From: Candidatus Versatilivorator sp.
Lineage (GTDB): Bacteria > Acidobacteriota > Terriglobia > Versatilivoradales > Versatilivoraceae
Length of the DNA stretch: 64,000 nt
Direction of reading: 5' to 3'
NCBI GenBank assembly: GCA_965207735.1
Contig: OZ242296.1
Span: forward strand, 1,760,001 to 1,824,000
Within the stretch, counting starts at the first letter, position 1; the number at the start of each line of letters is the position of its first letter. Below the pieces are notes generated by a model that searched no databases, was not told the origin of the DNA, and saw only the letters and a program-made list of their open reading frames with translations. Positions 16,357 to 63,272 of the stretch are shown here, in pieces. The position numbers and the translations under genes are program-made.

Positions 16357-16937
16357 TCAGGCAAGCCGGGCCCCCGCCGTGCCAGGCGGATCATTCAGAG
16401 GAGAAACAGCCAGCTGTTTGCGTTTTGGAAAGAGACAGGATTAATAGGACCAGAGGCCGCTGCACGGGACGCTGACTGGGAATCGGGGCGTTGGGCACGG
16501 CCAAGGCCCGCCACGGGGAAGATCAATCGAGAAGGACTAAGAATTGAACATGGATGCACAGGATGCACAGGATGCACAGGACGAGAGCTTCCTGCACCAG
16601 AAGCCAACTCGGGCGATGATCCGGTGCGGATTTGCAGATTCCCGGCAGTAGAAGCCAGCCGTTTCCTGAAGAATCCTGTGAATCCTGTGCATCGATGTTA
16701 ATGATCTCCTTAAATCACGATGGGGTCGGAAGCCCCCCACTGGCTCCGCCGCGGTCCTTGTTGCTTCTTCGCGGACAAATCCTCTTTGTCCCTTGTGTCC
16801 TTCGTTGACCCCCTTGCCGACCTTCGCCCCATCCCTCTTGAGCCTTCTCCAGCGCCTTGGTGGACCTTCGTCGTCCTTCGTGTGTCTTCGTGGATTCCTC
16901 TTTTTCTTTTTTCTTTTTCGGTTGTTTCAGACAAGCC
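16357..16937 (-). repeat. Composite repeat: A end + C (16396-16542) + B (16543-16702) + D (16703-16813) + A-type end
   Basis: 16357-16813 is a near-identical reverse complement of 42907-43355; C-B also at 26772-27060. Confidence 0.92.
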
Positions 16938-17132
16938 AAGCCGCGCCCGGGCTTAGCTGAAACCGGAGATGGGCGCGCCTTTGACCCTCCCTGTCGGGCC
17001 GTGATAGGCTTCGCGACGAAAACCGGTCAAGGGGCGCTCCTTGGCCTCCATCCCAACGCAAATGTGGCTTACCGGGAGATTCCACGGCGGTGGCGCCGGT
17101 AGCCCGGCCGGCCGCCTCGACCCAACACCCCC

Positions 17133-18545
17133 ATGCCTGAAGAACGTTCTGACCCGTCGACTCGACAACGCCGCAACGGTGAACTCCTGCTCAGCCGGCG
17201 GAGATTTCTGGCCGCCGGCACGGGCGGCCTGGTTGCAGCTGCGGGGGCGTTGACCCCCAATATGGCGGCGCTGGCGGCAAAGCGCACCTCGGATTCTGTC
17301 CACGGACGCATTACCATCACCGACATCGAGGCTCACGACATCAAGCTGGACTATCTCGACTGGCTCCACTACGAATTGAATCACTTCTACGGTCCCACCC
17401 GTCGAACCGTCTACGTGGTGCATACCGACAAGGGTTTCTACGGACTGGGGGAGGGCCGCAGGGAACCCGAGGACGTGCTGCAGAAATACATCGGCACCAG
17501 TCCCTTCGACTGGGTCGGAGACGAGACTTCCGTCCCCATGGTCAAGGCCATGTACGATCTGATGGGCAAGGCGGCCGGGGTCCCCGTCTACAAGCTCTTC
17601 GGCCAGCGCTACCGCCGCTGGGTGCCCGTCGGCTCCTGGACGGTCTCCACCCACCCCTCGGAGATGGCCGATGCCGTCCGGAACTATGCGGCCATGGGCT
17701 ACACCTGGATGAAGTACCACCTATCGCCCTTCGAGAACGTATTCGATCAACTCGAGGCCATGGAGCAGGTGGCTCCCCCGGGTTTCAAGCTTCAGTTCGA
17801 CCTCACCCGCTTCCACCACTACGGGCACAACCCCGACCTGGTGGAGAGGGTGGCGCGCTCGCCGATCGCCGGCTCCTTCGAGGACCCCCTGGATACCACC
17901 GACGTCGACGCCTACATCGACCTCCGCAAACGCATCCGCCTACCGATCCTGATCCACGGCAGCAAATTCAACCACAGCTTCGACGTGCTGCGCCGCGCCG
18001 CCGACGGCTACATCATCGGGCACCACAAGCTGGGGATGATCCTGCAACGGGCCGGACTGTTCGCGGCAGCCGGCGTACCCTTCATGATCCAATGGGTCGG
18101 CGGCCACATCACCCGGGCCATGACCACCCATATGCAGGCCGCCTTCAAGACCGCCAGCCTGCACTTCCACTGCGACGCCGAAACCTGGAAATCGGACGTG
18201 GTCAAGGAGCGGCTGGAGCCTATCAACGGATTCCTGCGAGTGCCGGAGCGGCCCGGGCTGGGGGTCACCCTCGATCGTGAAGAACTGGAGCGCCTCAAGC
18301 ACAACAACCCGCCGGAGCAGCCCCCCTATATCCTCAAGACCCGTTTCCGCAACGGCACCACCATGTACAACATCATGAGCCCCGAGAAGTCCCACTTCAT
18401 GGTTCTGCCTAATCGTTGGCGCCTGATGCCCATGAGCTTCGATTGGCCCGTCTCCAGCCAGTATTGGGACGACGACGGATCCGAGGAGTACCGAGCCATG
18501 TTCCGGCGGCTGCAGACCGAAGAAATGGTGTTCCGAAAGGAATGA
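17133..18545 (+). CDS. Enolase-superfamily (mandelate racemase/MLE-like) protein with Tat signal
   Basis: SRRRFL; VHTDKGFYGLGE; AMYDLMGKAAGVPVYKLFG; VPERPGLGVTLD. Confidence 0.88.
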   Translation: MPEERSDPSTRQRRNGELLLSRRRFLAAGTGGLVAAAGALTPNMAALAAKRTSDSVHGRITITDIEAHDIKLDYLDWLHYELNHFYGPTRRTVYVVHTDKGFYGLGEGRREPEDVLQKYIGTSPFDWVGDETSVPMVKAMYDLMGKAAGVPVYKLFGQRYRRWVPVGSWTVSTHPSEMADAVRNYAAMGYTWMKYHLSPFENVFDQLEAMEQVAPPGFKLQFDLTRFHHYGHNPDLVERVARSPIAGSFEDPLDTTDVDAYIDLRKRIRLPILIHGSKFNHSFDVLRRAADGYIIGHHKLGMILQRAGLFAAAGVPFMIQWVGGHITRAMTTHMQAAFKTASLHFHCDAETWKSDVVKERLEPINGFLRVPERPGLGVTLDREELERLKHNNPPEQPPYILKTRFRNGTTMYNIMSPEKSHFMVLPNRWRLMPMSFDWPVSSQYWDDDGSEEYRAMFRRLQTEEMVFRKE

Positions 18546-18835
18546 TCGCTACCGGCAATCCGCCCAGACGCCTGGAGATTACCCGCCGGGACGGGGGGTG
18601 CATGACCTGCTACCACTGGCCGGGTCCAGGTCCTTCATTGCTGCTCATCCCGGTACTGGAGCTGTGGGGTGACCGCAACCGGCCCCGCCCCAGCCGCCGG
18701 CAGATGAGAATTCCGGAGCGGCCCAACATCCAGTTGCAATGGATGGCCGGAGCCTCCCATTCGCTTCCGCTGGAGAGACCGCAAGAGGTTGCCGAAGCGA
18801 TCAACCGATTCGTCTTTTCCCTGGACGGTTCCTAA
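18542..18835 (+). pseudogene. Internally deleted alpha/beta hydrolase (97 aa)
   Basis: N-terminal ..GPGPSLLLIP joins directly to C-terminal VLELWGDR..GASHSLPLERPQEVAEAINRF; no GxSxG region; ATG overlaps upstream stop. Confidence 0.65.
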
Positions 18836-18868
18836 CCCACATTTTTCAAGGAGCGCCGGATTTCGTCC

Positions 18869-20557
18869 ATGAACGACTTGCCACAGCCTACAACCCGCAG
18901 AAGCTTCCTGCACACCGCATCGATGGCCGGGGCCGGCCTGTGGGCAGGCCAGGCAGCCTGCCGGACCGATTCCGATCCCGGGACGGAACCCGACGGCGCC
19001 CCGCCATCCAGCCGATTCGACTGCGTGGTCGTGGGAGGATCCCCCGGAGGAATTGCCGCGGCCGTGACCGCCGCGCGCATGGGACGCTCGGTGGCTCTGG
19101 TGGAGGAAAACGCCCACCTGGGCGGCATGTCCGCCAGCGGCCTGGGCAAGAGCGACATCGAGAACCGTGCGGCCATACGGGGGTTTTTCGCCGAATTCGT
19201 TGAGCGTATCCACCGGCACTACCTGGATAAGTACGGTCCCGACTCGGAAAACGTCCGCTTGTGCCGGAAGGGCTACTATTACGAGCCCTCGGTGGCTGAA
19301 GCCACCTTCGACAGGATGGTGGAAGAGCAGTCCTCCATCAGCCTGCTGAAGTCCCACCGCTTCCAGTCCACCATCACTCGAGAGGGAACCGCATGCGGGG
19401 TGGCGGTCCAGGACCGTCGAACCGGCGTTCAAAAACGACTGTCGGCCCGGCTGGTGATCGACGCCACCTACGAAGGAGACGCCTATGCCTCCGCCGGGGC
19501 CCGCTATCGGTTGGGCCGGGAATCCCGGGATGAGTTCGGGGAACCCCACGCCGGGGTGATCTATTTCGACTACCGCAAGCGGGTGTTTTTGCCGGGGTCC
19601 ACCGGTGAGGGAGACCGGCGCCTGCCGGCCTACACCTACCGCCTCTGCCTGACCACTGACCCCGACAACGCACACCCCTTGAGCGAACCGCCCCTCGACT
19701 ACGACCGTTCCCCTTACCTGGGCTACTTCGAAGACCTCAAGGAGGGGCGCCTGGCCGGACCCAAGCGCTTCAAGCTGGGCCGAGGCTACTTTCCGGACCA
19801 TTTCAACACGCTGGTACGCGCCCTGTCCGTGTCGGAGATTCCCAACCTCAAAACGGATGTGAACATGAATCCCCGGCCTCTGGGATTTCCCTTCGCCGAG
19901 GAGAACCAGGGCTATGTGGAGGGGAACCGGGAGGTCCGGCGGGAGATCCGGACCAGGATCCGCAACCTGACGCTGGGCCTGCTGTGGTTCCTGCAGCAGG
20001 ATACGGAGGCGCCTCCGGCCCATCGCCGCATAGCCCAGCAGTATCACCTGCCCCTGGACGAGTTCACCGACAACGGGCACTTTCCCTTTCAGCTCTACGT
20101 CCGCGAGGCGCGCCGCCTGGTCGGCCTGTACACGTTGACGGAACTGGATGTCAGCCGGAACCAGGCCAGGCCGGAGGCCGGCCGCTTCGAGGATGCGGTG
20201 GCCGTGGGCGAGTTTCCCGTCGACAGCTTTCCGGTGCGCAAGCGCCAGCCCGGTGACACGACCGTACTGGAGGGATATTTATACATGCTGGAAAACACCC
20301 GGCCCTATCAGATCCCCTATCGCATCATGATTCCGGAGCAGGTCGACGGACTGATCGTCCCGGTGGCTGCCTCCACCAGCCACGTGGCTTACTCCTCGAT
20401 CCGCACGGAACCGACCTGGATGGCGCTGGGTCAGGCCGCCGGCGTTGCCGCCCACCTGGCCCTGGAGCACCGTCTCCAGCCGCGCCAGGTGCCGGTCGGC
20501 CGGCTCCAGGAAATCTTGCGCCGCCAGGGACAGGTGCTGGATCTGGAATACTCCTGA
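18869..20557 (+). CDS. FAD-dependent oxidoreductase (FAD_oxidored family), Tat signal
   Basis: TRRSFL; VVVGGSPGGIAAA; IDATYEGD; LYVREARRL; PYQIPYR; SHVAYSSIRTEP. Confidence 0.9.
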   Translation: MNDLPQPTTRRSFLHTASMAGAGLWAGQAACRTDSDPGTEPDGAPPSSRFDCVVVGGSPGGIAAAVTAARMGRSVALVEENAHLGGMSASGLGKSDIENRAAIRGFFAEFVERIHRHYLDKYGPDSENVRLCRKGYYYEPSVAEATFDRMVEEQSSISLLKSHRFQSTITREGTACGVAVQDRRTGVQKRLSARLVIDATYEGDAYASAGARYRLGRESRDEFGEPHAGVIYFDYRKRVFLPGSTGEGDRRLPAYTYRLCLTTDPDNAHPLSEPPLDYDRSPYLGYFEDLKEGRLAGPKRFKLGRGYFPDHFNTLVRALSVSEIPNLKTDVNMNPRPLGFPFAEENQGYVEGNREVRREIRTRIRNLTLGLLWFLQQDTEAPPAHRRIAQQYHLPLDEFTDNGHFPFQLYVREARRLVGLYTLTELDVSRNQARPEAGRFEDAVAVGEFPVDSFPVRKRQPGDTTVLEGYLYMLENTRPYQIPYRIMIPEQVDGLIVPVAASTSHVAYSSIRTEPTWMALGQAAGVAAHLALEHRLQPRQVPVGRLQEILRRQGQVLDLEYS

Positions 20558-20604
20558 ACCGGACCGGCGTCCAGCGAATCGTCACCAACCCACGGGTGGT
20601 TCCG

Positions 20605-22053
20605 ATGCCCCGCGGCTATTTTCGTTACCAATCGTTGGAGGAGTTGGACCAGGCGGCCCGTCAGCTCGGGCTGGACCTGCGCCTGGAACCCGACACCCGG
20701 CGCGTCAGCAGCCTGCTGGGACGGCCGGTCCCAATCGGCCACTACCGCGCCGGCAACTCCCTGGCCATCCATCCCATGGAGGGGTGCGACGGCACCCCCC
20801 TCGGCGAGCCGGGTGACCTCACCTACCGGCGATACGATCGATTTGCCCGAGGCGGAGCCAAGCTGATCTGGTTCGAGGCTACTGCCGTGGTCCCGGAAGG
20901 CAGGGCCAATCCCAGGCAGTTGCTGCTCAACCAGGCCAACGCCAAGTCCGTGCAGTCGCTGTTGGATCGAACCCTGGCGGCTCACCGGGAGGTCCATGGA
21001 TCGGTGGACGACCTGGTAGTGGTCTTGCAACTGACCCATTCAGGCCGCTACAGCCATCCTCGGCCCCTACTCTGCCACCACCACCCCATCCTGGACCGGC
21101 TGACCTACCTGGACGGTTCCAGGCGAGTGCCTCTGCCCGCGGATTACCCACTGATGGACGATGCCTCCATCGAACGGCTGGAAGACGCCTACGCCCGGGC
21201 CGCGGGCCTGGCCGCCGCCATCGGGTTTCACGGGATCGACATCAAGCTGACCCACGGCTACTTCGGCAATGAACTGCTGGGGGCCAAGACCAGGAAGGGC
21301 CGCTACGGAGGAGGTCTGCACAACCGGACTCGTTTTCTCAGAAACGCGATCGAAAAAATCAAGGCCGCCACCCACAAACAGTTCCTGCTGGCTTCCCGGA
21401 TCGGAGTCTTCGACGGGCTCCCCTACCGAGCCGGAACAGACAACGGACGGGCTGAGCCCTGGCCCTGTTCCCTGCCCTACCGCCACGGGTTCGGTGTCCA
21501 CGAACAGAGACCTCAGGAACCCGATCTCACCGAACCCAAGCGGGTGATCGCCCTTCTGAAGCAATCGGGGGTGGGCCTGGTCAACGTTTCCATGGGAAAT
21601 CCCTACACCAACCCCCACATCGGGCGCCCCTTCGAAAAGCCCGACGAGGGCAACTACCAGACCCCGGAGCATCCCCTTATCGGGGTGGACCGGCACTTCA
21701 GGCTGTGCGGGGAAATTCAGCAGGCCTTCCCCGACCTGCCCATCGTGGGCACCGGCTACAGTTGGCTGCAGCACTGGCAGCACCACGCCGGGGCGGCCAA
21801 CCTCCGGGACGGCTTGGCCACGATCATGGGCATCGGACGGGGAGCCCTGGCCTATCCCGATCTGCCCACCGACATCCTGACACGAGGGACCCTGAATCCG
21901 GCCACCACCTGCAAGACCCTGACCTTCTGCACCTATCTCATGCGCCAGAAAACCCATCCCTGGGGCCAATACCCCACCGGCTGCCCCCCTTTCGACAAGG
22001 AGGTCTATGGGCCCGTCATCAAGGAAGCCCGATCCCGAAAGCGGCGAGGTTAG
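20605..22053 (+). CDS. NADH:flavin oxidoreductase (Old Yellow Enzyme family)
   Basis: NSLAIHPMEGCD; LQLTHSGR; GFHGIDIKLTHGY; YGGGLHNRTRF. Confidence 0.9.
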   Translation: MPRGYFRYQSLEELDQAARQLGLDLRLEPDTRRVSSLLGRPVPIGHYRAGNSLAIHPMEGCDGTPLGEPGDLTYRRYDRFARGGAKLIWFEATAVVPEGRANPRQLLLNQANAKSVQSLLDRTLAAHREVHGSVDDLVVVLQLTHSGRYSHPRPLLCHHHPILDRLTYLDGSRRVPLPADYPLMDDASIERLEDAYARAAGLAAAIGFHGIDIKLTHGYFGNELLGAKTRKGRYGGGLHNRTRFLRNAIEKIKAATHKQFLLASRIGVFDGLPYRAGTDNGRAEPWPCSLPYRHGFGVHEQRPQEPDLTEPKRVIALLKQSGVGLVNVSMGNPYTNPHIGRPFEKPDEGNYQTPEHPLIGVDRHFRLCGEIQQAFPDLPIVGTGYSWLQHWQHHAGAANLRDGLATIMGIGRGALAYPDLPTDILTRGTLNPATTCKTLTFCTYLMRQKTHPWGQYPTGCPPFDKEVYGPVIKEARSRKRRG

Positions 22054-22061
22054 TTCTGGAC

Positions 22062-23228
22062 CTACTCCTTCTCCAAAACCCAGCGCACGGCTCCCATGTG
22101 GTAGCGCTGGTGCTGGGGAACCCGGTTGCTGTAGTAGGCGGTCAGCAGGGTTCCGTCCTCCATCTGGACGGTCGAGGGATATCCGCCATCGGTGGTTTCT
22201 TCAAGGTTGACGATCCGGGTGGGACGATCCCAGGTCCGGCCTTCGTCCTCACTGGTGCGGTAGCCGATGCCGTGGTGCCCTTTCTCCCGAATCCCGTAGG
22301 TCAGCAGGATGCGCCCATCGGCCATCTCCAGCAGGTGGGCCGGATGGTGCCCGGGAAGCGTCAGGAGCCCCGACCTTACCCAGCGTTTCCCCTCGTCTTC
22401 CGAGACATAGAGCGCCAAGTGGCCGTCGGCGTGACTCCGGGAGGCAGCCAGCCAGCGATCAGGGCCCAGCCGCAACAGGGCCGTCTCGTTGTAGTCATGG
22501 GGCGCTATCTTGACGGCTTCGCCCCAACTCCGTCCGTCGTCCCGACTGAACAAGACGAAGGCGTTGGCTGCCCCTGGAATCTCATGGTAGAAGCTGGCCG
22601 CCAGCAGTTTTCCTTCTCCCTGAACGATGTCTCCAAAAGGAATCAGAAAATCCACCCCCTCCGGCAACTGCACCGCGGAGGATCGACTCCAGCTCCCGCC
22701 GCCGTCCGATGACCGCGCCACCAGCGTGGGCAGGATCTTTTCCCGGAAATCCCGGCCGCCCCATCCCGAGGCCAGCACCACCAGGGATCCGTCATGGGCC
22801 AGTCCGGCGGCCACGTTCATCCGGTTGCTTTCCCCCTCGTGAACGGCCGGGTTGCCCTGTTTTTCCCAGAGGCGGCCGTCCCGGCTGGACCAGCACTCCA
22901 CATCGCCGACGTCCAACCCGTGATAGGGCCGGTTGAAGATGGTCGCCACCACGCTCCCGTCCGGCATCAGGGTCAGGTTGGGCCAGGCACAGACGTTGTC
23001 GATGGCCACGAATCGTTCAGTTCCCTGGTGGAAGACGCCAAGCAACTGCCAGAGGAGGCCGCAGGCCAATCCAATGCCGACGCGACGCGGCCACGCCGCT
23101 CCGGATCGGATCGCGAGCGGCCTGGTCCAACCAGGCCTCGACGCCCGGGACCTTGTTTCTGCCGACATGATTTTGGTCGTATGGATCCGACTTGGCGGTT
23201 TGGGACGCGGTCGTGAGATGGGAAACAT
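22062..23228 (-). CDS. Sialidase-like / BNR (Asp-box) repeat protein; start uncertain
   Basis: Asp boxes SSDGGGSW, SRDDGRSW, SEDEGKRW, SEDEGRTW; DGGYPS..DGTLLTAYY. Confidence 0.85.
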   Translation of the reverse strand: MFPISRPRPKPPSRIHTTKIMSAETRSRASRPGWTRPLAIRSGAAWPRRVGIGLACGLLWQLLGVFHQGTERFVAIDNVCAWPNLTLMPDGSVVATIFNRPYHGLDVGDVECWSSRDGRLWEKQGNPAVHEGESNRMNVAAGLAHDGSLVVLASGWGGRDFREKILPTLVARSSDGGGSWSRSSAVQLPEGVDFLIPFGDIVQGEGKLLAASFYHEIPGAANAFVLFSRDDGRSWGEAVKIAPHDYNETALLRLGPDRWLAASRSHADGHLALYVSEDEGKRWVRSGLLTLPGHHPAHLLEMADGRILLTYGIREKGHHGIGYRTSEDEGRTWDRPTRIVNLEETTDGGYPSTVQMEDGTLLTAYYSNRVPQHQRYHMGAVRWVLEKE

Positions 23229-23289
23229 GGTGACGTTGACCTCCGTCGTTCGATGGGTTATTACCTGCTCCTGAACCCCTCCCGTGACT

Positions 23290-23320
23290 ACTCTTCACTC
23301 TTCACTCTTCACTCTTCACT
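23290..23320. repeat. Heptamer tandem repeat (ACTCTTC)4 overlapping the recD2 stop
   Basis: actcttcactcttcactcttcactcttcact; recD2 TGA at 23316-23318. Confidence 0.9.
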
Positions 23321-25577: not shown

Positions 25578-25626
25578 GTCTTCTCGAGCCCCCTTTCGCG
25601 CAGCCACCCGGCTGCAAGAGTTGATT

Positions 25627-26549: not shown

Positions 26550-27312
26550 TCTGACAAGTGTCGCCCCCGCTCTGTCGTGCGGATCATAAGAGAGTGAAAC
26601 TATCAGAAATCGACCAATCCCTTCGCGACCTTGGTATCCCGTTACGGTTCACCTCAACGCCTTAGTGGCCCTTCGTCGTTCTTCGTGCCCCTTCGTGGAA
26701 AAGTCTTTTTCTTTGTCTTTTGTCGGTTGTTTCAGGCAAGCCCGGCCCCCGCCGTGCCAGGCGGATCATTCAGAGGAGAAACAGCCAGCTGTTTGCGTTT
26801 TGGAAAGAAATAGGACCAGAGGCCGCTGCACGGGACGCTGACTGGGAATCGGGGCGTTGGGCACGGCCAAGGCTCGCCACGGGGAAGATCAATCGAGAAG
26901 GACTAAGAATTGAACATGGATGCACAGGATGCACAGGACGAGAGCTTCCTGCACCAGAAGCCAACTCGGGCGATGATCCGGTGCGGATTTGCGGATGTCC
27001 AGGACTGCAAGCCAGCCGTCTTCAGAAAAAATCCTGTGCATCCTGTGCATCCATGTGAATAAACCAACTACCCATGCTTGACCTTGAGCCGGTCTCCAGC
27101 CACCCGGCGCCCGGGTTGTTTCAGACAAGTCCCGCCCCCGCCCTGGTGTGCGGATCATACATAGAGTGAAACAATCAGAAATCGATCAACCCTTCGCGAA
27201 CTTGGTACCCCGTCGCGGCCAACCTCAGCGCCTTAGTGTCCCTTCGTCGTTCTTCGTGCCCCTTCGTGGATAAGTCTTTTTTCTTTTGTCTTTTTCGGTT
27301 GTTTCAGACAAG
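26550..27312 (-). repeat. Composite repeat: A + A end + C + B (26909-27060) + linker + A
   Basis: Junction cores at 26550, 26732, 27121, 27304; A periods 182 and 183 bp. Confidence 0.93.
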
Positions 27313-31973: not shown

Positions 31974-33460
31974 GAGCCTTTTGCAAAATTCGGAATCGGG
32001 CATGACATTGGGCTGGCAACAGTGATGTTCCGGCGGTGACTACCCAGCTGCAAAGACCCTTTTGAAGGAAAAAGCCCGAATCTGATGGCCGGATGGCCAG
32101 CGGTCGCCGGACGCAGGCACAGCTTACCCTCTCCCGGCCTTGAGGCGGGCGAACCTGCTGTGCGGTTGGGGGTGGCAACCCGGTCTTCAGAGCGTCAGGC
32201 GCATCAACTGATCCACCGTCAGGGCCAGAATGCCGAACATCAGGTGGCACCTCACCTTGTCGGGGCCGCGAACCCTCACCTGCCTCCCGCCAAACTCCTC
32301 CTTGAGCCGTCCGTTGACCCGCTCCACCGTCGAGCGTTCCCGGTAGCGCCGCGCCTCGGGAGTCACTTGGCCGATACAGCGCCGGGCCAGTGCCTCCCGC
32401 TTCCGCTCGGCTTTCAAGGTAGCTCTTCGGCGGGGGTTGACGTCAATAATCGGCACATGCCCCAGCTTCTCACTGAAGGCCCGGATCTCCGGCGCATCGT
32501 AGGCGCTGTCCATCAAGTCGTAGAGACTCTCGACCCGCCTTGCCGTCAGCGTCGCCAGCGGAATGGCTGCCTGAGAGTCATGCACCGAGGCCGAGGTCAG
32601 CAGACAACTGACCGGAATCCCGCCGTCAATGGCGTCGAGGTGTAGCTTGTAGCCGGTCCAGCTCTCCTGATGCCCCTTGGCGTTGCGCTTGACGCCGATG
32701 TCGCAGGCCTTGGGCAACTCCTTCAACATTTCCTCCAGCGTCATCGACCCCTGCCGCTCCAGCCGGCTCAACCGCTTGGGCCGTCGCTCGCCCTTCGGCG
32801 GCCGGCCCCGCCGGCGTTTCCGCTTGGCCTCCGGCGCAGCCTTGGCCGCTGGCTTTTCCCGTCCCGCAATCGCCGTCGAGTCCCTCGACACATGCCCCGC
32901 CAAGTGGCCCTTCAGCGTCTCCTCCAGCAATGCCTCGTGCAAACGCCCCGGCAGGTCGCTCTCAGCGAATTCCGCAAAGGCCCGCGAGAAGGTCGACTCG
33001 CTCGGTACCTCCCACGCCCTCTCCCAGCCGCACAGCCGCCGCAGCCTCCCCTCACTCCTCAGCCGCTCCACCAATCCCCGCGTGGTCGCCACCTCCAGCA
33101 TCGACTTCGCCAGATAGGCTCGCGCCAGCACTGCCCGATCCTCCAGCGGCCGGCCACGCCAGCCCCGACTGTAAGGCAGCAACTCCTCCACCCGCACCAA
33201 CTCCAATACCTGCACCAGCCGCTGGTAACGCTCTCCCAGAGGCCCCAAAACTTCCTCCAGCAGGGGAAACAGCTCTCGTTGAAACCGGAACCAGTGTCGT
33301 GATAGGGTTTCCCTAAGGGGCAAGTTCCACCTCCGTTCATCATGTGGTTCAGACACCTTCATGATACAACAGACAGTGGTCTTGCCCCTCCTTCCACCTG
33401 CCCTCCTTGATCTTTCCCCACGTGAAAATTCCCGCTATCTGCGAATTTTGCAAAAGGCTC
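31974..33460 (-). mobile_element. Insertion sequence, 1487 bp, IS5/IS1182-like
   Basis: Perfect 19-bp TIRs gagccttttgcaaaattcg (31974-31992, 33442-33460); GATT duplicated at 31970-31973 and 33461-33464. Confidence 0.95.
32187..33362 (-). CDS. DDE transposase (DUF772-like N-terminus + DDE_Tnp_1-like core)
   Basis: VPSESTFSR; RDSTAI; GYKLHL; SVHDS; MDSAYD; YRERSTVERVNGRLK. Confidence 0.93.
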   Translation of the reverse strand: MKVSEPHDERRWNLPLRETLSRHWFRFQRELFPLLEEVLGPLGERYQRLVQVLELVRVEELLPYSRGWRGRPLEDRAVLARAYLAKSMLEVATTRGLVERLRSEGRLRRLCGWERAWEVPSESTFSRAFAEFAESDLPGRLHEALLEETLKGHLAGHVSRDSTAIAGREKPAAKAAPEAKRKRRRGRPPKGERRPKRLSRLERQGSMTLEEMLKELPKACDIGVKRNAKGHQESWTGYKLHLDAIDGGIPVSCLLTSASVHDSQAAIPLATLTARRVESLYDLMDSAYDAPEIRAFSEKLGHVPIIDVNPRRRATLKAERKREALARRCIGQVTPEARRYRERSTVERVNGRLKEEFGGRQVRVRGPDKVRCHLMFGILALTVDQLMRLTL

Positions 33461-33528
33461 GATTTCCAATTGTTTCACTCTATGTATGATCCGCCCGGCA
33501 GGGCGGGGGCCTCGCTTACCTGTAACAA
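33461..33528 (+). repeat. Unit A, right part
   Basis: gatttccaattgtttcactctatgtatgatccgcccggcagggcggggg..cttacctgtaacaa. Confidence 0.9.
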
Positions 33529-33654
33529 CGCCTGGGTTCGAATGAAGGGGAACCGATTGAGGGGTATTCTACAACGGGCACAGAGTTACACCCTACAATT
33601 CCCAGCGTCTGGTCTCGGTGCCGAGCATGAGTCAACCGCTGATTTAACTGCATA

Positions 33655-33897
33655 ATTAACATGGATGGACAGGATATACAGGATTTCTAATTGATGGGTC
33701 TGCACAGAATGCTCCGGGACTAAAGTTCTCTCCCCCCTCGAGTGCGACCGTTACCATTTCTTCAACAAGGATTCCAAAACCCGTTCCCATGGCCATGGAT
33801 CACCTCGAACGAGCACCCGATCATCGAGCGAGTCCGCTTCCTGCGCAACAGCTTCTCATTCTGTTTATCCTGTCCATCCTGTATATCCATGTTCAAT
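33655..33897 (-). pseudogene. Relic GxxExxY (PD-(D/E)XK nuclease family) cassette with terminal inverted repeats
   Basis: From ATG 33890: MDIQDGQDKQNEKLLRRKRTRSMIGCSFEVIHGHGNGF, then ES in a shifted frame; IRs at 33655-33684 and 33867-33897. Confidence 0.7.
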
Positions 33898-33995
33898 AAG
33901 TAGAAAACCAGTTCAACGGGACATTGTCCTTTTCCCGAAAGGCCATGGACCTCCGTTGTTTCACCCTCGAATGATCCGCCCCGTCGTGGGGGGGC
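33861..33995 (+). repeat. Module F (B end + linker + A end)
   Basis: Aligns along its length with 56883-57016. Confidence 0.8.
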
Positions 33996-42469: not shown

Positions 42470-42564
42470 GGTGGAACCCAGGGAAACCGTTGTCGTCTGA
42501 AGCCATATTATCCGAGGGATTCGGCAGCCGGTCAAGAGCCCGGATTGGGGACGACCGGAAAGCG

Positions 42565-43535
42565 TGCCTGAAACAAACGAAAAAAGACAAAAGAAAAAGA
42601 CTTATCCACGAAGGGACACGAAGAACGACGAAGGGGCACTAAGGCGCTGAGGTTGGCCGCGACGGGGTACCAAGGTCGCGAAGGGATGGTCGATTTCAGA
42701 TTGTTTCACTCTCGAATGATCCGCACGGCAGGGCGGGGGCCCGGCTTGCCTGAAACAACCGAAAAACGACAAAAGACAAAGAAAAAGACTTATCCACGAA
42801 GGGGCACGAAGAACGACGAAGGGCCACTAAGGCGCTGAGGTTAACCGCGACGGGGTACCAAGGTCGCGAAAGGATTGTCGATTTCTGATTGTTTCACTCT
42901 CGAAAAGGGGGGTCAACGAAGGACACAAGGGACAAAGAGGATTTGTCCGCGAAGAAGCAACAAGGACCGCGGCGGAGCCAGTGGGGGGGCTTCCGACCCC
43001 ATCGTGATTTAAAGAGATCATTAACATCGATGCACGGGATTCACAGGATTCTTCAGGAAATGGCTGGCTTCTAATGCCGGGAATCCGCAAGTCCGCACCG
43101 GATCTTCGCCCGAGTTGGCTTCTGGTGCAGGAAGCTCTCGTCCTGTTAATCCTGTGCATCCATGTTCAATTCTTAGTCCTTCTCGATTGATCTTCCCCGT
43201 GGCGGGCCTTGGCCGTGCCCAACGCCCCGATTCCCAGTCAGCGTCCCGTGCAGCGGCCTCTGGTCCTATTAATCCTGTCTTTTTCCAAAACGCAAACAGC
43301 TGGCTGTTTCTCCTCTGAATGATCCGCACGGCAGGGCGGGGGCCCGGCTTGCCTGAATCAACCGACAAGAGACAAAAGAAAAAGACATTTCCACGAAGGG
43401 ACACGAAGAACAACGAAGGGACACTAAGGCGCTGAGGTTGACCGCGACGGGGTGCCAAGGTCGCGAAGGGTTGATCGATTTCTGATAGTTTCACTCTCGT
43501 ATGATCCGCACGACAGGGCGGGGGCGACACTTGTT
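42565..43535 (+). repeat. Largest composite repeat: A + partial A + D + B (43020-43170) + C + A end + A
   Basis: Junction cores at 42567, 42749, 43352, 43534; A period 182 bp. Confidence 0.95.
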
Positions 43536-55206: not shown

Positions 55207-55289
55207 CGATTCCTCCATTCCTTTGGTTGTTCCGGAGACACGGGCAATGCCCCGACTCCATGTCATTCGGGGCAAGCCAGTCGGAAAAT

Positions 55290-56168
55290 CTAGCGAAATT
55301 GCAGCCGGGCCCACTCCTCGGCGCTCCGCACGGCGCGCTCCGGCCGGCTCCGGCTGCGGGCGATGTGTCCCTGGTCCTGGCGCAGGGTCGGTTGGCGGGC
55401 GTCCTGATAGCGCCAGTCCAGGTTCCAGCGAACCGTCCGGCTGCGATTGGGCAAGCCCTGGTGAAACAGCAGATTGCTGAACAGCACCATGTCCCCCGGG
55501 TCCAGCTCGATGGATACGGCCTTCTCGAATAAGGGCGTATACCTGGGGTCGACGATCTCCAGGTAGTAGCGTCGGCTGACGTGGGGCACCACCCCCAGCT
55601 TGTGGCTGCCCGGGACGAACTGCATGCAGCCGTTCTCCTCCCGCGCCGGCACCAGCGGCGACCAGACATTGAGCATTCGCAACTCCACCACGTCATCTTC
55701 CTGTACAGCGTCACTAGTGTGCACGAAGTGGGTGTAGCCCCCGTCCTGGTGCCACCAGATGCGAGTGCCCTCCCAGTCGGGGAGCTTGGGACGCACGGTG
55801 TAGTTGGGATAGAGGCGAATCTCGCCGCCCAAGACCGACTCGACCAGGTCGAGGAGCTCCGGATGAAAAAAATAGCCGAAGATGCCGGGCAAGTGCAGTT
55901 CGCGGCGGAAGCTTTGGGGCGCCCGGTCCAGGCAGTCCCGGAACAGCCGGTAGATCCGGGTGTCGAAGGGCTCGTCTGCAAAGGAGGACTGGACCCGTCC
56001 CTCCCGAATCAACCCGGCAGCCAGTTGGTCGACCAGCCCGTTGAGATCGGCCCGGGCATCGGCCACCACTTGCGGTTCCACCAGACCCCGCAGGACGACA
56101 TATCCCTCCTCGTCCAGTTGCTTTCTTAACCCAGATTGCATGAGGTCATTGGAGCGGGCTTGGGGCAC
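55290..56168 (-). CDS. Phytanoyl-CoA dioxygenase (PhyH) family
   Basis: WHQDGGY; NGCMQFVPGSH; GDMVLFSNLLFHQGLPN..RWNLDWRY. Confidence 0.92.
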   Translation of the reverse strand: MPQARSNDLMQSGLRKQLDEEGYVVLRGLVEPQVVADARADLNGLVDQLAAGLIREGRVQSSFADEPFDTRIYRLFRDCLDRAPQSFRRELHLPGIFGYFFHPELLDLVESVLGGEIRLYPNYTVRPKLPDWEGTRIWWHQDGGYTHFVHTSDAVQEDDVVELRMLNVWSPLVPAREENGCMQFVPGSHKLGVVPHVSRRYYLEIVDPRYTPLFEKAVSIELDPGDMVLFSNLLFHQGLPNRSRTVRWNLDWRYQDARQPTLRQDQGHIARSRSRPERAVRSAEEWARLQFR

Positions 56169-56265
56169 AGACAGACTCCCAGGAGCAAGCAGGGATCATA
56201 GAGTAAATGGGTGGATAAATAAAGAAGGCCGGCGAGGATCGCCGCAGTCGATCGCGGCAAAAAAT

Positions 56266-57026
56266 ACTTGCCTGAAACAAACGACAAGAGACAAAAGAAA
56301 AAGACTTATCCACGAAGGGGCACGAAGAACGACGAAGGGACACTAAGGCGCTGAGGTTAACCGCGACGGGGTGCCAAGGTCACAAAGGGATTATCGATTT
56401 CTGATTGTTTGACTCTCGAATGATCTGCACGGCAGGACAGGGGCCGGCTTGCCTCAAACAGACGAAAAAAGACAAAAGACAAAGAGTTATCCACGAAGAG
56501 ACACGAAGAACGGCGAAGGGCCACTAAGGCGCTGAGGTTTACCGCGACGGCATACCAAGGTCACAACGGGATGGTCGATTTCTGGTTGTTTCACTCTCGT
56601 ATGATCCGCCCGGTACGGCGGCGGCCGGACTCGCGGACAAAACGGGAGTTTTCCAAAAGGCGCCCGTCGGCTTTCAGAGAATTCGCCCCCCCGGATACCC
56701 TCCATCGCACCATCGGGACGCCCGCGCTCCCGGGTGGCATTCTCCCCTGACGCCGTGACACCAACGTCACAATATTGCAGAAGCGCCCGGGCGCCGCTCG
56801 TCATTGACCGAGCTCCATCCCTATTCGTCCCCATTCGTGTTCATTGGTGGTTCGTCTTCATTTCCAAAACCAAAACGGCTGGCTGTTTATCCTGTCTATC
56901 CTGTGCATCCATGTTCAATCAGTAGAAAACCGGTTTTGCACGACAGTGCCCTTGTTCCCGATAGGACATGAAGATGCGTTGTTTCACTCTCGTATGATCC
57001 GCCCGTCGTGGGGGGCGGGACTTGTC
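56266..57026 (+). repeat. Composite repeat: A + A + E + F
   Basis: Junction cores at 56271 and 56452 (181-bp period); E at 56669-56852; F at 56883-57016. Confidence 0.92.
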
Positions 57027-57153
57027 CCCAAGAACCGGCGCCCGTGCGGTCACACCCGATGCCATCGTGATATGGTAGGAGCGGACGGCGTCCGACGACG
57101 ATCAGTTCCACCATCGATTCCAGCCGGTCACATCCAAAAGAACCCCAGGAGCC

Positions 57154-57945
57154 ATGCCAGTGAGAAAGAGCAAAGTCTTGAAAAAATTCCGCAGCGGCAA
57201 GTTCGCCCGGATCTGCGGAATGGGACACTTCCTTCCCTTCTTCATTCGCCACGCCGCCCACTCTCGATACGACGGGATCTGGTTCGACCTGGAACACCGA
57301 GCCATGAACGACAGAGAAGTGCAGTCCATTCTGGCCCTGTGTCAGCTCCACGATATCGATTGCATGATCCGTCCCTCCACCCGGGAACCCGCTCGCCTGT
57401 ACCGGTACCTGGAAGAGGGAGCCGCCGGCTTCATGTTTCCCTTTGTCAACAACGCCCAGGTCGCCAGGCAACTGGTCCGGGCGGTCAAGTTTCCACCTGT
57501 GGGCGACCGTGGAGTCGACGGGGCGGGAATGGATGCAGACTACACCCTGGCTGCCTGGACGCCGGGGAGCGACTACTGTGGGGAAGCCAACCGCGAGACC
57601 TTCATCCTGGCACAAATCGAGACCCCTGAGGCGCTGGAAAACGTGGAAGAAATCGCTGCCGTGGAGGGGATCGACTGTCTCTTCGTGGGTCCCGCCGATC
57701 TCACCCGTCGCATGTCCAGCTTGCCCGGGAACAAGCCGTTCGTTCTGGATGACGCCGTCCAGCGAGTGGCTGAGGCCGCCAGCCAAGCCGGCAAGGCCTG
57801 GGGGGTCACTGTGCCCTCTCTGGAGGCCTTGGCAAAATACCGCAGGATGGGAGGCCAGGTGATGCCCTGGGGAGGAGACTATTTCCTGGTCGGGGTCCTG
57901 GACCAATGCCGCCGGGACCTGGATGGAGTCCTGGAACCGGAATAG
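57154..57945 (+). CDS. HpcH/HpaI aldolase family
   Basis: WFDLEH; VKFPPVGDRG; AQIETPEALENVEEIAAVEGIDCLFVGPADL. Confidence 0.92.
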   Translation: MPVRKSKVLKKFRSGKFARICGMGHFLPFFIRHAAHSRYDGIWFDLEHRAMNDREVQSILALCQLHDIDCMIRPSTREPARLYRYLEEGAAGFMFPFVNNAQVARQLVRAVKFPPVGDRGVDGAGMDADYTLAAWTPGSDYCGEANRETFILAQIETPEALENVEEIAAVEGIDCLFVGPADLTRRMSSLPGNKPFVLDDAVQRVAEAASQAGKAWGVTVPSLEALAKYRRMGGQVMPWGGDYFLVGVLDQCRRDLDGVLEPE

Positions 57946-57954
57946 GGCCTCCCC

Positions 57955-58899
57955 TCAGCGCACGAACCAGCGGGCCGCGCAGCGCACCTGGCTCTTTTGA
58001 AACTGGAGGGTGTAGGGATTGACCAGCCAGCGGGCCAGGTAGCCGTCGGTGCGGGCCAGCACCCAGCCGAAATCCCAGCCCTTGCTCCGGTATCGGATCG
58101 GAATGGAGGGCTTGACCCGGACCACGGGTTGGGCCGCCCCCCACAGCCGCTTCTGCTCGGTATAGTAGTAATTGGGGCCCACGTGAACGAATACCTCGTG
58201 GGCCATGGCCTTTGCCGGGTCATCGGCCAGGTCGGCGCACAGACCCCGAAGCGCCACCTTGACATCCCGGCCGCGGGCGCATTCCCTGGCCAGATCCTCT
58301 ACAGAACCGGACACAACCGTGCCGTCCTCGGTGTGAGAGAGGACCTCTTCCCAGACGTCCAGCACATGGAAGCCGTAGGACTCGAAGTCATAGACAAAGT
58401 TCTGGCTGGGGGCGTTGGTGCCCGCATCCCAGTCGTCGATGCGGTGGGTGTTGGGATCGGAACCCTGATCGTACGGCGGTGAGGACCCCGGCAGGCCTTC
58501 GTCGGGCTTGCCGTCCAGGTAGGGCCGGGCGATGGCCTGAAGGCCGTTCTGGTTGTACATGAAGAACGACATGGAGGCCCTGGGTCCAAAGCCGTCCTCC
58601 ACCAGTCCCACCGGCTGCCTGAGATTCATGATTCCGGCCGTCCAGCGATCTTCCAGCAGATAGGTCACCCGAAAGTCGGAGACTTCCTGAACCAGTTCGG
58701 GATTGTCGGAGTCCCGGTCCACGTGCTCGTTGTGCCGGAACTCGGTATAGATTCTGAGATCGGCGCCCCGCCGGATGGCGTCAGCCAAGGCTTTCTCGCT
58801 GCCCGCCACCGGCTGGCGCTGCTTGTCCAGGGAGAGAGCCAGTCTCCAGCGGTTGCCTTCCGGCGGCGACTGCTCCCTTGAATCGGTATTCTCGACCAT
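57955..58899 (-). CDS. Hypothetical protein with an internally duplicated domain
   Basis: WRLALSLD..AGSEKALADAIRRGADLRI and WEEVLSHT..SGSVEDLARECARGRDVKV; start at ATG 58899. Confidence 0.75.
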   Translation of the reverse strand: MVENTDSREQSPPEGNRWRLALSLDKQRQPVAGSEKALADAIRRGADLRIYTEFRHNEHVDRDSDNPELVQEVSDFRVTYLLEDRWTAGIMNLRQPVGLVEDGFGPRASMSFFMYNQNGLQAIARPYLDGKPDEGLPGSSPPYDQGSDPNTHRIDDWDAGTNAPSQNFVYDFESYGFHVLDVWEEVLSHTEDGTVVSGSVEDLARECARGRDVKVALRGLCADLADDPAKAMAHEVFVHVGPNYYYTEQKRLWGAAQPVVRVKPSIPIRYRSKGWDFGWVLARTDGYLARWLVNPYTLQFQKSQVRCAARWFVR

Positions 58900-58979
58900 G
58901 GGTCTTGACCTTTCCTGTTTTGAAGAATGGTTGGTGTCGATGACGGCCAGTTTCAGGAAGTAACCTCCCCCTACTGAAT

Positions 58980-60557
58980 TCACTCCCGGTGCCTCAGGGG
59001 ACGACCGGGAAACCGGTCCAGCAGCTTCCCCTCCCGCAGCGCCCACTCGCCGTTCACCAGAAGGTGGTGAATGCCTCGGGGGGTATGGCGAGGGTCCATG
59101 TAGTCGGCACGGGTGCCGATCCGATCCGCATCGAATACCGTCACGTCGGCCCAGCATCCGGGGGCCAGCAACCCTCGCCGTTCCAGCTTGAATCGGCGGG
59201 CCGGCAGCGCCGTCGATTTGCGCACCGCCTCTTCGACCGTGAACCAGCCTTTCTCGCGAACGAATTCTCCAAACAGGGTCGGATAGGTTCCAAAAGTCCG
59301 AGGATGGGGATTCCCCTCGGTGTAGACGCCGTCGGTGATGATGGAGGTCAGCGGGTGACTCAACACCTTGCGTAGATTTTCTTCCGACTGGTTGAAGGAA
59401 ACTATCATCAGGGAGGCCCGGGTCTCCTGCAGCAGATCCAGGGCTGTTTCCACTCCGGAACGGAGGCGTTCCTCGGCCACCTGTTGAATGGTCCTGCCGA
59501 CGAGGGCCTGGTGGATCGTCGCCCGCGCCGATGCGATCCATTGGTGGCCCCCCTCCCGGACCGATGCAATCAACAGGTTCTCCCAGCCGTTGCCCAGGTT
59601 GGCCTCGGTCTCATCCGCGATCCTGGCCCGAGTGTCCTTGTCGGACAGCCGCTCCAGCAAGCGCTCGGTTCCCCCCTCCAGGGCCCAGCTCGGCAGAACC
59701 TGAGTCAAATGGCAGGATCCCGCCAGATAGGGATAGGCATCGATCCCCACGTCCACACCGTCCCCCAGGGCCTGATCCACCAGGTGCAGCACCGCATCCA
59801 TCTTTTCCCAGTTCTTTCGGCCCACCGTCTGCAGGTGGGAAAGCTGAACCGAGACCCCGGTCTCCCGTCCCAGGTTGAGGGCCTCCTCCACGGCCTCCAG
59901 GATGTGAAACTTGTAGTCCCGTAGATGAGTGGTGTAGAAGGCGCCGTATCCGTGAACGACCTTGCAGAGACGGACCAGTTCGGCGAAATCCCCGTAGCTG
60001 CTGGGGGCTTCGTTCAAGCCGGTGGAGAACCCGATCGATCCCTGCTCCAGGCAGGAGGACAACCTCCGCTCCATCCGGCGCCACTCCGCCGAATCCAGCC
60101 CGGCCGCCTTGATCCCGCAGACGTTGGCCCTGAGAGTGGCGTGGCCGGTGAGAGCCGCCACGTTGGTGCGGCTGCCGGTCTTCTGCAGGTCATCGAAGTA
60201 GGCGGCCGCATCGGTCCAGGCCCGCGAACCCCTCCTGTCGAACAGGTCGAAACTGGGAACCAGCTTCTCCGAGGGCAACTTGGGAAAGAGGGAAAACCCG
60301 CAATTGCCGACGACTTCGCTGGTAACCCCTTGCAGGACCTTCTCTGGGCGGTGTTCCAGCACCTCCAGGTCGCTGTGGCTGTGTACGTCGATGAAACCGG
60401 GCGTGACCGTGAGCCCGGAGCAGTCCACCACCTCCATGTCCGGCCCGGCGGTGACCGCGCCCACCTCCCGGATTCGGCCGCCTTGGATCAGGACCGACGC
60501 CTCCCTGCCGGGGCTGCCGCTGCCATCCACCACCCTTCCGTTGGACAAGAGAATCAT
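58980..60557 (-). CDS. D-aminoacylase / N-acyl-D-amino acid deacylase
   Basis: PGFIDVHSHSD; VVGNCG; HLRD; DAYPY; HPRTFGTYP; ADVTVFD. Confidence 0.92.
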   Translation of the reverse strand: MILLSNGRVVDGSGSPGREASVLIQGGRIREVGAVTAGPDMEVVDCSGLTVTPGFIDVHSHSDLEVLEHRPEKVLQGVTSEVVGNCGFSLFPKLPSEKLVPSFDLFDRRGSRAWTDAAAYFDDLQKTGSRTNVAALTGHATLRANVCGIKAAGLDSAEWRRMERRLSSCLEQGSIGFSTGLNEAPSSYGDFAELVRLCKVVHGYGAFYTTHLRDYKFHILEAVEEALNLGRETGVSVQLSHLQTVGRKNWEKMDAVLHLVDQALGDGVDVGIDAYPYLAGSCHLTQVLPSWALEGGTERLLERLSDKDTRARIADETEANLGNGWENLLIASVREGGHQWIASARATIHQALVGRTIQQVAEERLRSGVETALDLLQETRASLMIVSFNQSEENLRKVLSHPLTSIITDGVYTEGNPHPRTFGTYPTLFGEFVREKGWFTVEEAVRKSTALPARRFKLERRGLLAPGCWADVTVFDADRIGTRADYMDPRHTPRGIHHLLVNGEWALREGKLLDRFPGRPLRHRE

Positions 60558-60570
60558 CGGGGTCTCCTCC

Positions 60571-61539
60571 TCAGCGCTTGAAGAAGAAATTCTCGGCCGT
60601 CTTCACCAGTATCTGGTCCTTGTCGCTTTCGCTCAGGAAGTCGGCGTGATCCTGAATCAGGGCCACCGCGGCCCCAAAGGTGTTTGGGGGCTCGAGCGCC
60701 TGAAGGGGACAGTCGCTTTCCCACATGCAGCGTTCGGGACCGAAGGCCTCCACCACCCGGCGGATGAGCGGAAGCTGTTCCAGGTAAGGAGGCTTCTTGG
60801 CCCCCAGCGCATAGAAGGCACCGACCTTCACCATCACGGCAGGGTGCTTGGCCATGGCGCACAGGGCGGTAATCTCTTCTTCGGGGAAAGTCCCCCGCCT
60901 TCCGATCAGACAGAGGTGATCGATGATGACCGGGGTCTGCGGATGGCGCCGGCACATGCGGTCCAACTCGGGCAGGTCGGGAGGCGACATCAGGAAGCTG
61001 AGGGCCAGGCGGTGGTCGGCCGCGGCCTGGAACATCCTCTCGTACCCCTCATGGTCGAGCCAGCGCGGCCCGTCACCCAGGCGCGGCCGGGTGCTTTTTC
61101 CCCGAATGCGGAAGGCCAGGATGCCTCCCCGGGCCAGGGACACCATGGTCCTGTCGGGTCGGGCCAGACTGACATCGGTCACCGCCGGGACGATCCCCGT
61201 CCCCACGAAGTTCTCGGGCTGGGCGGCGATGATGTCCAGAATATAGCTGTGGTCCAACCCGTACCAGGTCATCTGGATCAAGTTGGTGCGACGGACCCCC
61301 TGGGGCCGGCTGTGGCGGGCCAGGTCCTCCGGAGTAAAGCTGGGAAACCAGAAGTCCTTCTTGCTGAAGCCCGGCGCCAGGGGATATTTCTCGGTATCCG
61401 GAGTCCACACGTGGACGTGGGCGTCCACGATATCGGTCCGCTTGCCTGGAGCGGCAGCCGCGGGCGTTGGCCTGCCGGCCGCCAGCAACGCCAGGCCGGC
61501 GCCCGATACCAGCAATTCTCTACGGGTGATTTCTTTCAT
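60571..61539 (-). CDS. Amidohydrolase family 2 protein, Tat signal
   Basis: TRRELL; VDAHVHVW; IIDHL; FGPERCMWESDCP. Confidence 0.9.
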   Translation of the reverse strand: MKEITRRELLVSGAGLALLAAGRPTPAAAAPGKRTDIVDAHVHVWTPDTEKYPLAPGFSKKDFWFPSFTPEDLARHSRPQGVRRTNLIQMTWYGLDHSYILDIIAAQPENFVGTGIVPAVTDVSLARPDRTMVSLARGGILAFRIRGKSTRPRLGDGPRWLDHEGYERMFQAAADHRLALSFLMSPPDLPELDRMCRRHPQTPVIIDHLCLIGRRGTFPEEEITALCAMAKHPAVMVKVGAFYALGAKKPPYLEQLPLIRRVVEAFGPERCMWESDCPLQALEPPNTFGAAVALIQDHADFLSESDKDQILVKTAENFFFKR

Positions 61540-61619
61540 CGTGACCTCATGGTTTGGCAGGACTGTCTTTATCTGAACCCGGAGTCCAGGAGACCGAGAC
61601 CGGTCCGCAGCAAGGCAGG

Positions 61620-62759
61620 CTACCCCTTCTTTGCCGCCTTTGTCACGGCCTCGGTGTAGGCAGCGCCAGCGGCATTCAGGCTCCGGAGGGCTTCCTCGGG
61701 CAGGGTGATCCGGGTTCCCGCGAAATTGTCGGAAACGTGCTCCGGCTTCTCGGCTCCGGCCAGCACGCTGGTGACCTCGGGATGGCTCAAAACCCAGGCC
61801 ACGCACACCTGGGGTCGGGTGACCCCCAATTCATTGGCGACCGCGTCCAGCGCCTCTATGGGACCCTGCAACGGGGATCCCTCCGGGACTTCCCGGCCCG
61901 GGGCCAAGCGTCCTTCCCCCAGGGGGCTGAAGGTCAACAGGCCCAGGTTGCCCCGGCGAATCAGGGGAAACAGCTCCTGCGCCATGAAGTCCTTTCGCTC
62001 GGCGGCTACCAGGTTGTAGTAGTCCTCCAGCCCGGCAATGGGGCTCTTGCCCTCCCGCTTCCCCAACTCGATCAATTCCCCCACCTGACGGGCCAGGTGG
62101 TTTGAAACCCCCCAGTAGCGGATCTTGCCGGCTTTGACCAGTTCGTCCAGGCTGTCGGCGAGCTGCTCCATGTGCTCGGCTGTCGGGACATCGGCCGGAG
62201 GAGAATCCGCATCTTCCCTCGGCGTCCGCTCATCAGGTGAATGCAACAGGTATAGATCGATGTAATCCGTCCCCAGGCGCTTGAGGCTCCCCTCCGCTTT
62301 ACGGAACAAAACGTCGCGAGTAAAGACCAGCCTTTCCGATTCGGGGCCATCCACGGGCGCAGCCTTGGTGCAGACAACCACCTGGTCTCGCCTTCCGGCC
62401 ATGGCTTTGCCCAGAACCGTTTCAGAACCGCCCCAACCGTAGGCCTCGGAGGAGTCGAAGAAGTTGACGCCGATGTCGATGCAATGGCGCAGGATGCTCA
62501 GCCCCTCCGGATCATCGGCCTTTCGGCTTACCTTGCGAAAGGCGGTTCCCTGGCACAACCTGGACACGTAGAGATCGGTGTGCCCGAACCTCACCAGGTG
62601 GGAGGGCCGCTCAACCGCCGGCTCTTGGGGCGGAGCCGACTCGCACCCGGACAGATTGCCCAGCAACACCCCTCCGGCGGCCGTGCCACAGGTTTTCAGA
62701 AAGTCACGGCGATCCAGGAAAGAGGAGGCAAACGGCGAGAACCGGGAAATGACCGGCAT
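61620..62759 (-). CDS. Aldo/keto reductase, Tat(-lipoprotein) signal
   Basis: DRRDFLK..LSGC; FFDSSEAYG; SLKRLGTDYIDLYLLH; GKIRYWGVSN; SPLGEG. Confidence 0.92.
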   Translation of the reverse strand: MPVISRFSPFASSFLDRRDFLKTCGTAAGGVLLGNLSGCESAPPQEPAVERPSHLVRFGHTDLYVSRLCQGTAFRKVSRKADDPEGLSILRHCIDIGVNFFDSSEAYGWGGSETVLGKAMAGRRDQVVVCTKAAPVDGPESERLVFTRDVLFRKAEGSLKRLGTDYIDLYLLHSPDERTPREDADSPPADVPTAEHMEQLADSLDELVKAGKIRYWGVSNHLARQVGELIELGKREGKSPIAGLEDYYNLVAAERKDFMAQELFPLIRRGNLGLLTFSPLGEGRLAPGREVPEGSPLQGPIEALDAVANELGVTRPQVCVAWVLSHPEVTSVLAGAEKPEHVSDNFAGTRITLPEEALRSLNAAGAAYTEAVTKAAKKG

Positions 62760-62969
62760 GGCATGATCCTTTCGTCTCTTGGCTGCTGCCGCCCGGGAAG
62801 GAAGTCTGGCGGGAGCGGGAGCGCGGTTGGCTTCAAGTCGCTGCTCCTGAGGGAAGACACTCAAGAGTGAGCGCTATTCTCTACCGGCGTCTAAGGCGGG
62901 TCAAGTATGAACGGTCAGTGTAAAGGGTCAGGTCGGGACCCGGAAAGGAGGCAACGCTGCAAAACCACA

Positions 62970-63272
62970 AGGGGGAAAAGAGTTATCCACGAAGTTTCAC
63001 GAAGGGCCACCAAGGGGTTGCAGAAGAATCAAGAGCGATCCGCCAAGGGTTGGAAAGGGCCACCAAGCGAGACGGACTTGCTTCAATGGCACGCACAGCC
63101 GTTCAATGGACAATTAACATCGATGCACAGGATCCACAGGATTTTTTCGGGAAACGGCTGGCTTGCAATCCCGGGCATCCGCAAATCCGCACGGGATCAT
63201 CGCCCGAGCCGGCTTCTGGTGCAGGAAGCTCTCGTCCTTTTTATCCTGTGCATCCTGTGCATCCATGTTTAT
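62970..63272 (+). repeat. Composite repeat: A-type end + complete module B (63113-63272)
   Basis: gaaaagagttatccacgaag..; attaacatcgatgcacaggat..atcctgtgcatcctgtgcatccatgtttat. Confidence 0.9.

Follow-up and report, generated by a model that had tools for sequence, protein, structure and literature searches.

Gene-less derivatives of a GxxExxY cassette probably spread as cargo of non-autonomous IS110 elements in Candidatus Versatilivorator

We analyzed a stretch of 64,000 nucleotides (nt) from Candidatus Versatilivorator sp. (hereafter the window; G000:1760001-1824000, where G000 is the present genome), centering on a family of short inverted-repeat elements, here called B, that resemble the two ends of a cassette encoding a GxxExxY protein. 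With a probability of roughly 0.7, most B copies are cargo inside small IS110 elements (mini-IS110; a few lie within the ends of a DDE element) and are likely moved by the transposases of these carriers, the GxxExxY protein being probably unneeded for their recent spread. The observations behind this reading are the derivation of B from the cassette, its position inside carrier ends, the existence in G000 of full-length elements, both IS110 and DDE, that share these ends, and empty sites that begin and stop at carrier ends. The initial annotation of the window had taken the spread of B as a hint that GxxExxY proteins mobilize their own cassette. For the recent spread we found no support for this, as the young copies lie in IS110 or DDE carriers, and the high number of copies without the gene does not argue for GxxExxY as a transposase, because these copies appear to hitchhike.

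Four elements (B1 to B4), three halves and a relic had been described in the window, with inverted ends made of a variable number of 9-mers and with short readable peptides, and all of these are present in the sequence (Table 1). Genome-wide, the arm motif occurs 259 times (128 + 131, compared with 3–4 per strand in three shuffles), forming 87 inward-facing pairs and leaving 85 arms unpaired. Excluding two pairs closer than 100 bp gave 85 B-family copies, 58 of them 132–170 bp long (B), 21 of 192–217 bp and six of 226–236 bp. The fold of B2 has a z of -6.0, and none of 200 shuffles was as stable. The proposed kinship of the peptides to the relic and to the GxxExxY N-terminus was invisible to library hidden Markov models (0/4 short B peptides detected in NCBIfam) but was recovered by a custom profile of 74 relatives from outside the genus, which gave 28.7 bits for the relic, 14.1 for B1, 12.7 for B2, 6.9 for B4 and 6.7 for the half at 6183, with shuffle maxima of at most 1.1 bits.

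GxxExxY family matches are present in all 13 same-genus genomes that we compared. The intact gene flanked by the same inverted repeats, which the initial annotation anticipated, was not found in G000 (three fragments, the longest tblastn match being 57 amino acids) but exists between B arms in six of the 13 (G003, G005, G006, G008, G012 and G013), in cassettes of 486–504 bp whose only gene is PDDEXK_3. All six are single-copy and occupy one site between gspE and gspF (gspF was assigned by Pfam; the other gene we take to be gspE from the operon layout), while G001 has a diverged copy at a different site and the same gap in G000 holds two cassette derivatives in tandem. We dropped the idea that the shared 5' flank at this site is native gspE-gspF chromosomal sequence, as it looks like an IS110 left end that has degenerated.

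From the cassette, B retains ~95 bases at the start and ~60 at the end. Stripped of their arms, B interiors match nt 38–94 and 415–453 of the 486-bp form with scores of 38–48, compared with maxima of 27–35 in 300 shuffles each; junctions were placed by split local alignment, as free-gap global alignment gave unstable ones. These two-piece alignments indicate that B is an internal-deletion derivative of the inverted-repeat-flanked GxxExxY cassette, as had been proposed. The longer size classes keep other pieces of the gene and G011 has further junctions, which argues that the deletion occurred several times. A search for two arms 360–420 nt apart, a spacing that proved too short, returned only tandem B copies and no genes. 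Exact-pattern B counts range from 22 to 111 in the six genomes with an intact gene and from 26 to 62 in six without one, with four in G011 and none in G001, so B numbers are not tied to possession of the gene; the claim that B kept spreading after gene loss holds, in that copies are found in genomes without it. The 111 exact-pattern copies of G005 include a large young subfamily located 59 nt ahead of an IS110 right end.

The repeats around B extend well beyond its arms, and only 4/87 pairs end within 15 nt of the arms on both sides. The commonest outer ends occur 283 (left) and 275 (right) times in the genome, compared with none in one shuffle, and are common to a full 1.65-kb IS110 element with ten full copies in G000, whose transposase scores 220 bits (cut-off 140) and is named RNA-guided in NCBIfam. 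Since these are the ends of a full IS110, the abundant repeat module around B (module A) is a non-autonomous IS110. An IS110 end in the same orientation lies within 450 nt of 51 of the 85 B copies, as opposed to 1.8% of 5000 random sites; 26 of the 51 have both ends, 11 the left alone and 14 the right alone, and in dozens of copies B stands at a fixed distance, 60 or 66 nt, from the carrier end. Eight of the 34 copies without an IS110 end are instead associated with terminal repeats from a DDE element whose best matches are IS1182/IS5 models, with scores below their cut-offs.

Among comparisons of filled and empty sites we counted by hand 26 distinct events with at most 31 nt left on the empty side, excluding wider gaps and loci without orthologues. 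In G002 the B1 site lacks the entire carrier and retains one copy of the core that the filled site has at each end, and a contig from another study (run X5) skips exactly 570 bp, 16357-16926; in the other ten relatives this site is too diverged to polarize. The empty sites of X5 and of locus L257 likewise retain one copy of the core, as for a non-autonomous IS110, and in G005 the L244 locus has DDE ends and, compared with an empty site in G000, shows a duplication of 4 bp. In all, at least six of the 26 events (B1, L244, L250, L257, L066 and L471) end at a carrier end. Polymorphism bounded by the B arms themselves, as expected of a unit delimited by its own repeats, was seen in only one event (G000:5017285 compared with G002, relic class), which is unpolarized; no clean arm-bounded empty site was found at five free-standing sites in five relatives or at one more in one relative.

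The ages of the copies fit this picture. Median identity to the nearest copy is 0.78 for free-standing copies, 0.92 for IS110-carried and 0.98 for DDE-carried ones, and a neighbor at least 95% identical exists for 19/51, 7/8 and 2/26 of the IS110-carried, DDE-carried and free copies, respectively. Both of the young 'free' copies bear carrier-type flanks.

Based on these data we can sketch how B may have spread. A deletion would have removed the interior of the cassette after its entry into the genus, and copies would have come to sit between IS110 ends. The IS110 recombinase, acting in trans with its RNA, would excise the mini-element and reinsert it at the short shared core, and would move anything placed between a left end of ~50 nt and a right end of ~15 nt. 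Recombination inside B would shuffle left and right flanks and invert interiors, and the free copies, being older, likely go back to a preceding phase with some other mover. In IS110 bridge RNAs, parts of the non-coding end act as guides by matching donor and target. The full IS110 has a structured non-coding left end of 267 nt (L043:330-596, G000:2818829-2819095), which contains three matches of 7 nt to the junction of the ends (counted without a chance control), one of which varies between genomes at a position that is variable in the core, making this end a candidate bridge RNA.

Several observations weigh against carriage as the full explanation. The remaining 26/85 copies are free-standing (~24–26 lack a nearby carrier end), and neither the ~24 older ones nor two arm-bounded inversions are accounted for by carriers; the description of B as a mere passenger, which the initial annotation named as the opposing case, suits the young copies. 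In G010 the free-standing B4, whose site is occupied likewise in 9/12 relatives, has the stretch between its arms inverted, and contigs of two studies show an inverted unit in the gspE-gspF gap. On the left the arms border 33 flank classes (25 singletons) and on the right 32 (28 singletons), so something once placed arms at many sites. About 19/26 filled/empty events end in mixed repeat patches, at neither carrier ends nor arms. The IS110 gene was not found at E 1e-30 in 8/13 relatives, three of them closed genomes, yet mini-IS110 ends nonetheless occur in several of these eight. Finally, the sample from G007 and G012, in which 20/21 B copies at 20 loci picked from 80 pattern matches have an IS110 end, was, like one further filled/empty sample, selected by likeness to carried copies.

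Nor do the carriers account for how the intact cassette spread across phyla. We kept 80 of 204 confirmed loci outside the genus and scored 77. The same arm stands at one or both ends of 67/77 loci of the subfamily, in many phyla, and at both ends of 43/77; an inverted-repeat score of at least 14 was reached at 53/77 loci, compared with 0/418 control placements, and an IS110 left end occurs at only 2/77. The neighboring genes belong to more than 20 unrelated families, mostly in the same orientation (62 of 147 neighbor stretches were scanned), although 27/80 cassettes lie behind one restriction-modification gene end. Other GxxExxY subfamilies bear other arm words. The same arms around one subfamily across phyla, at 20 or more unrelated sites and without IS110 ends, suggest that the intact cassette is likely mobile. 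Of 80 loci compared at the hsdR-hsdM gap, the gap behind that gene end, 45 are empty (45/71 readable homologous operons), 26 hold inserts and nine lack one of the genes, and no clean arm-bounded pair was found. Four of five inserts there that a script had labeled GxxExxY proved to be another protein, and the one true case has different arms.

The parent protein scores 146.7 bits (cut-off 35) and 137.8 bits (cut-off 22) against the family models TIGR04256 and PF13366. Residues G23, E26, Y29, D65, E75 and K77 are invariant in 49/49 sequences, and the ratio of non-synonymous to synonymous substitution rates (dN/dS) is 0.06–0.28 in 21 pairs, indicating that the gene is under purifying selection. 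In agreement with the PD-(D/E)XK fold given in the initial annotation, a predicted structure (mean predicted local distance difference test, pLDDT, 95) matches Cas4 SSO0001 (E 1e-4, template modeling score 0.61) and also resembles lambda-type exonuclease and Hjc; no sequence relative was found in the PDB. Fold and conserved residues together mark the protein as a predicted nuclease.

It is possible, as a tentative proposal, that hairpin-flanked GxxExxY cassettes constitute an undescribed class of mobile element, in which a 120-residue PD-(D/E)XK nuclease would recognize subfamily-specific 9-mer arms and, across phyla, carry a unit of ~480 bp into gaps that separate co-transcribed genes; B would be the form without the gene, which this enzyme spread at first and mini-IS110 elements adopted afterwards. 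We consider it unlikely that the nuclease, recognizing its own arms, moved both the intact cassette and, in trans, B, with the carriers merely a late layer. Such an activity would agree with the arms and varied neighbors seen outside the genus, with the invariant D65, E75 and K77 and the low dN/dS, with the arm-bounded inversions and the one deletion or insertion touching both arms, and with the gspE-gspF gap measuring 5–6 bp in both G004 and G007 (in G001 it is 41 bp). However, the young copies arose in genomes without an intact gene of the subfamily, the intact gene is confined to one copy at one site wherever it occurs in the genus, the fold matches those of exonucleases and resolvases and not that of a transposase, and the linkage of arms and protein would also follow from simple co-inheritance. 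Target duplication is also missing: direct repeats of 4, 5, 6 and 8 nt at the arm tips occur in 22, 5, 2 and 1 of the 85 copies, compared with 29.9, 9.7, 2.9 and 0.5 for mismatched pairs, and show no excess.

We regard as equally improbable that B spread mainly by host recombination, through gene conversion between arms, switching of templates at hairpins and build-up in intergenic gaps that tolerate repeats, perhaps with help from tyrosine transposases of the repetitive extragenic palindrome (REP) type. The free combination of left and right flanks, the events ending in mixed repeat patches, the gspE-gspF gap with its different tandem arrays in each genome and unrelated repeat families in G009 and G010, and one partial Y1 transposase match in G000 are consistent with it, but recombination alone leaves unexplained both the precise empty sites at IS110 and DDE ends and the fixed spacings to the carrier ends.

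Carriage of B by mini-IS110 elements has a precedent in Pseudomonas putida, where MITEPpu9, related to ISPpu9 of the IS110 family, carries a small RNA gene as passenger in eight copies (PMC12288879). As described there, MITEPpu9 is non-autonomous, has IS110 ends and a passenger and occurs in tandem with the full element, and modular movement with a transposase acting in trans was proposed; the present case differs in its ~280 end pairs and in carrying what is left of two or more GxxExxY cassette families. B also has traits of the classical MITEs (miniature inverted-repeat transposable elements) of DDE insertion sequences, in that it is short, non-coding and multicopy, has terminal inverted repeats and arose by internal deletion of a gene-bearing unit. 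Target duplication is a criterion for classical MITEs. B lacks it, no transposase gene with the same ends was found, the parent gene does not encode a DDE transposase, and the moving unit is usually larger than the arms delimit. In REPtrons and TIRtrons, RAYT or TIRYT genes (HUH tyrosine transposases) lie between inverted repeats (PMC3733652), and both share with our cassettes the layout of a single gene whose flanking inverted repeats also make up a family of dispersed repeats. Here, in contrast, the gene encodes a PD-(D/E)XK protein, its start codon is inside the arm and the repeat retains pieces of the gene; profile and structure searches found no HUH tyrosine transposase between the cassette repeats, only PDDEXK_3. 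The family (TIGR04256, PF13366) is listed as of unknown function and multiply transferred (PMC3424549), in an entry silent on flanking repeats, derivatives and mobility, and one other passage on GxxExxY concerns a Cas4 next to a reverse transcriptase. Searches of main texts, with few subscription papers among them, found no description of hairpin-flanked GxxExxY cassettes; supplements, which might list such repeats, were outside the search.

For a family of unknown function, the genus thus offers a matched test set: an intact gene, its own arms, several derivatives that arose by deletion, and further subfamilies whose arms differ. The carrier is notable in itself, one chromosome having ~280 natural pairs of mini-IS110 ends that enclose varied cargo of a few hundred bases.

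Table 1. Features of the window related to B and its carriers (window coordinates).
Feature	Position	Strand	Remarks
B1	16543..16702	+	160 bp; left arm, first ~28 and last ~13 codons of GxxExxY cassette, right arm
B2	26909..27060	+	152 bp; IS110 left end 26761-26785, right end 27115-27129; in tandem run of mini-elements
B3	43020..43170	-	151 bp; IS110 left end 43303-43327, right end 42745-42759
B4	63113..63272	-	160 bp; free-standing, old
Longer derivative (relic class)	33656..33897	-	gene codons 1 to ~35 and a middle piece; IS110 ends 33957-33979 and 33515-33529
GxxExxY gene 3' end and right arm	6183..6282	-	
Left arm alone, joined to arm sequence of second GxxExxY cassette family	8101..8135	+	
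Left arm alone	56883..56921	-	66 nt behind IS110 left end (56980-57002)
Non-autonomous IS110-derived carrier of B1	16357..16935	+	left-end motif 16386-16410, right end 16921-16935
DDE transposase (DDE_Tnp_1 and DUF772)	32187..33362	-	one of 43 identical copies; its terminal repeats serve as second carrier of B at other places in the genome
Module A interiors matching second-family arms	10809-10995, 26564-26740, 42562-42930, 56266-56634		

Other remnants also occur within the carriers. The most frequent interior of the mini-IS110 (module A) aligns with arms from a second family of GxxExxY cassettes (L024, L025 and L001; 73–90% over 50–100 nt), and a third arm word inside carriers of G012 resembles by eye that of L028 and L029. 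A reverse transcriptase gene, which from its motifs we take to be of the group II intron type, lies at a hairpin inside a mini-IS110 at L044 (G000:1405900-1408800) and at four similar sites. A 9-mer resembling the start of the methylase gene located after the cassette in restriction-modification operons stands 17 nt past the right arm in 21/51 IS110-carried copies (window 27061-27085; background 0.17%) and at 2/43 non-operon sites outside the genus; the copies with this 9-mer share one ancestor and so give a single hint of a cassette moving with a short 3' tail. In L304 and L309 a methylase start codon lies inside the cassette right arm. The hsdR-hsdM gap appears to be a general landing place, with small inserts of several unrelated kinds in 26/71 readable operons. 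GxxExxY genes also form tandem arrays, at G014:C59:287495-288799, G017:C4:160000-161317 and L007, with periods of ~477 and ~484 bp.

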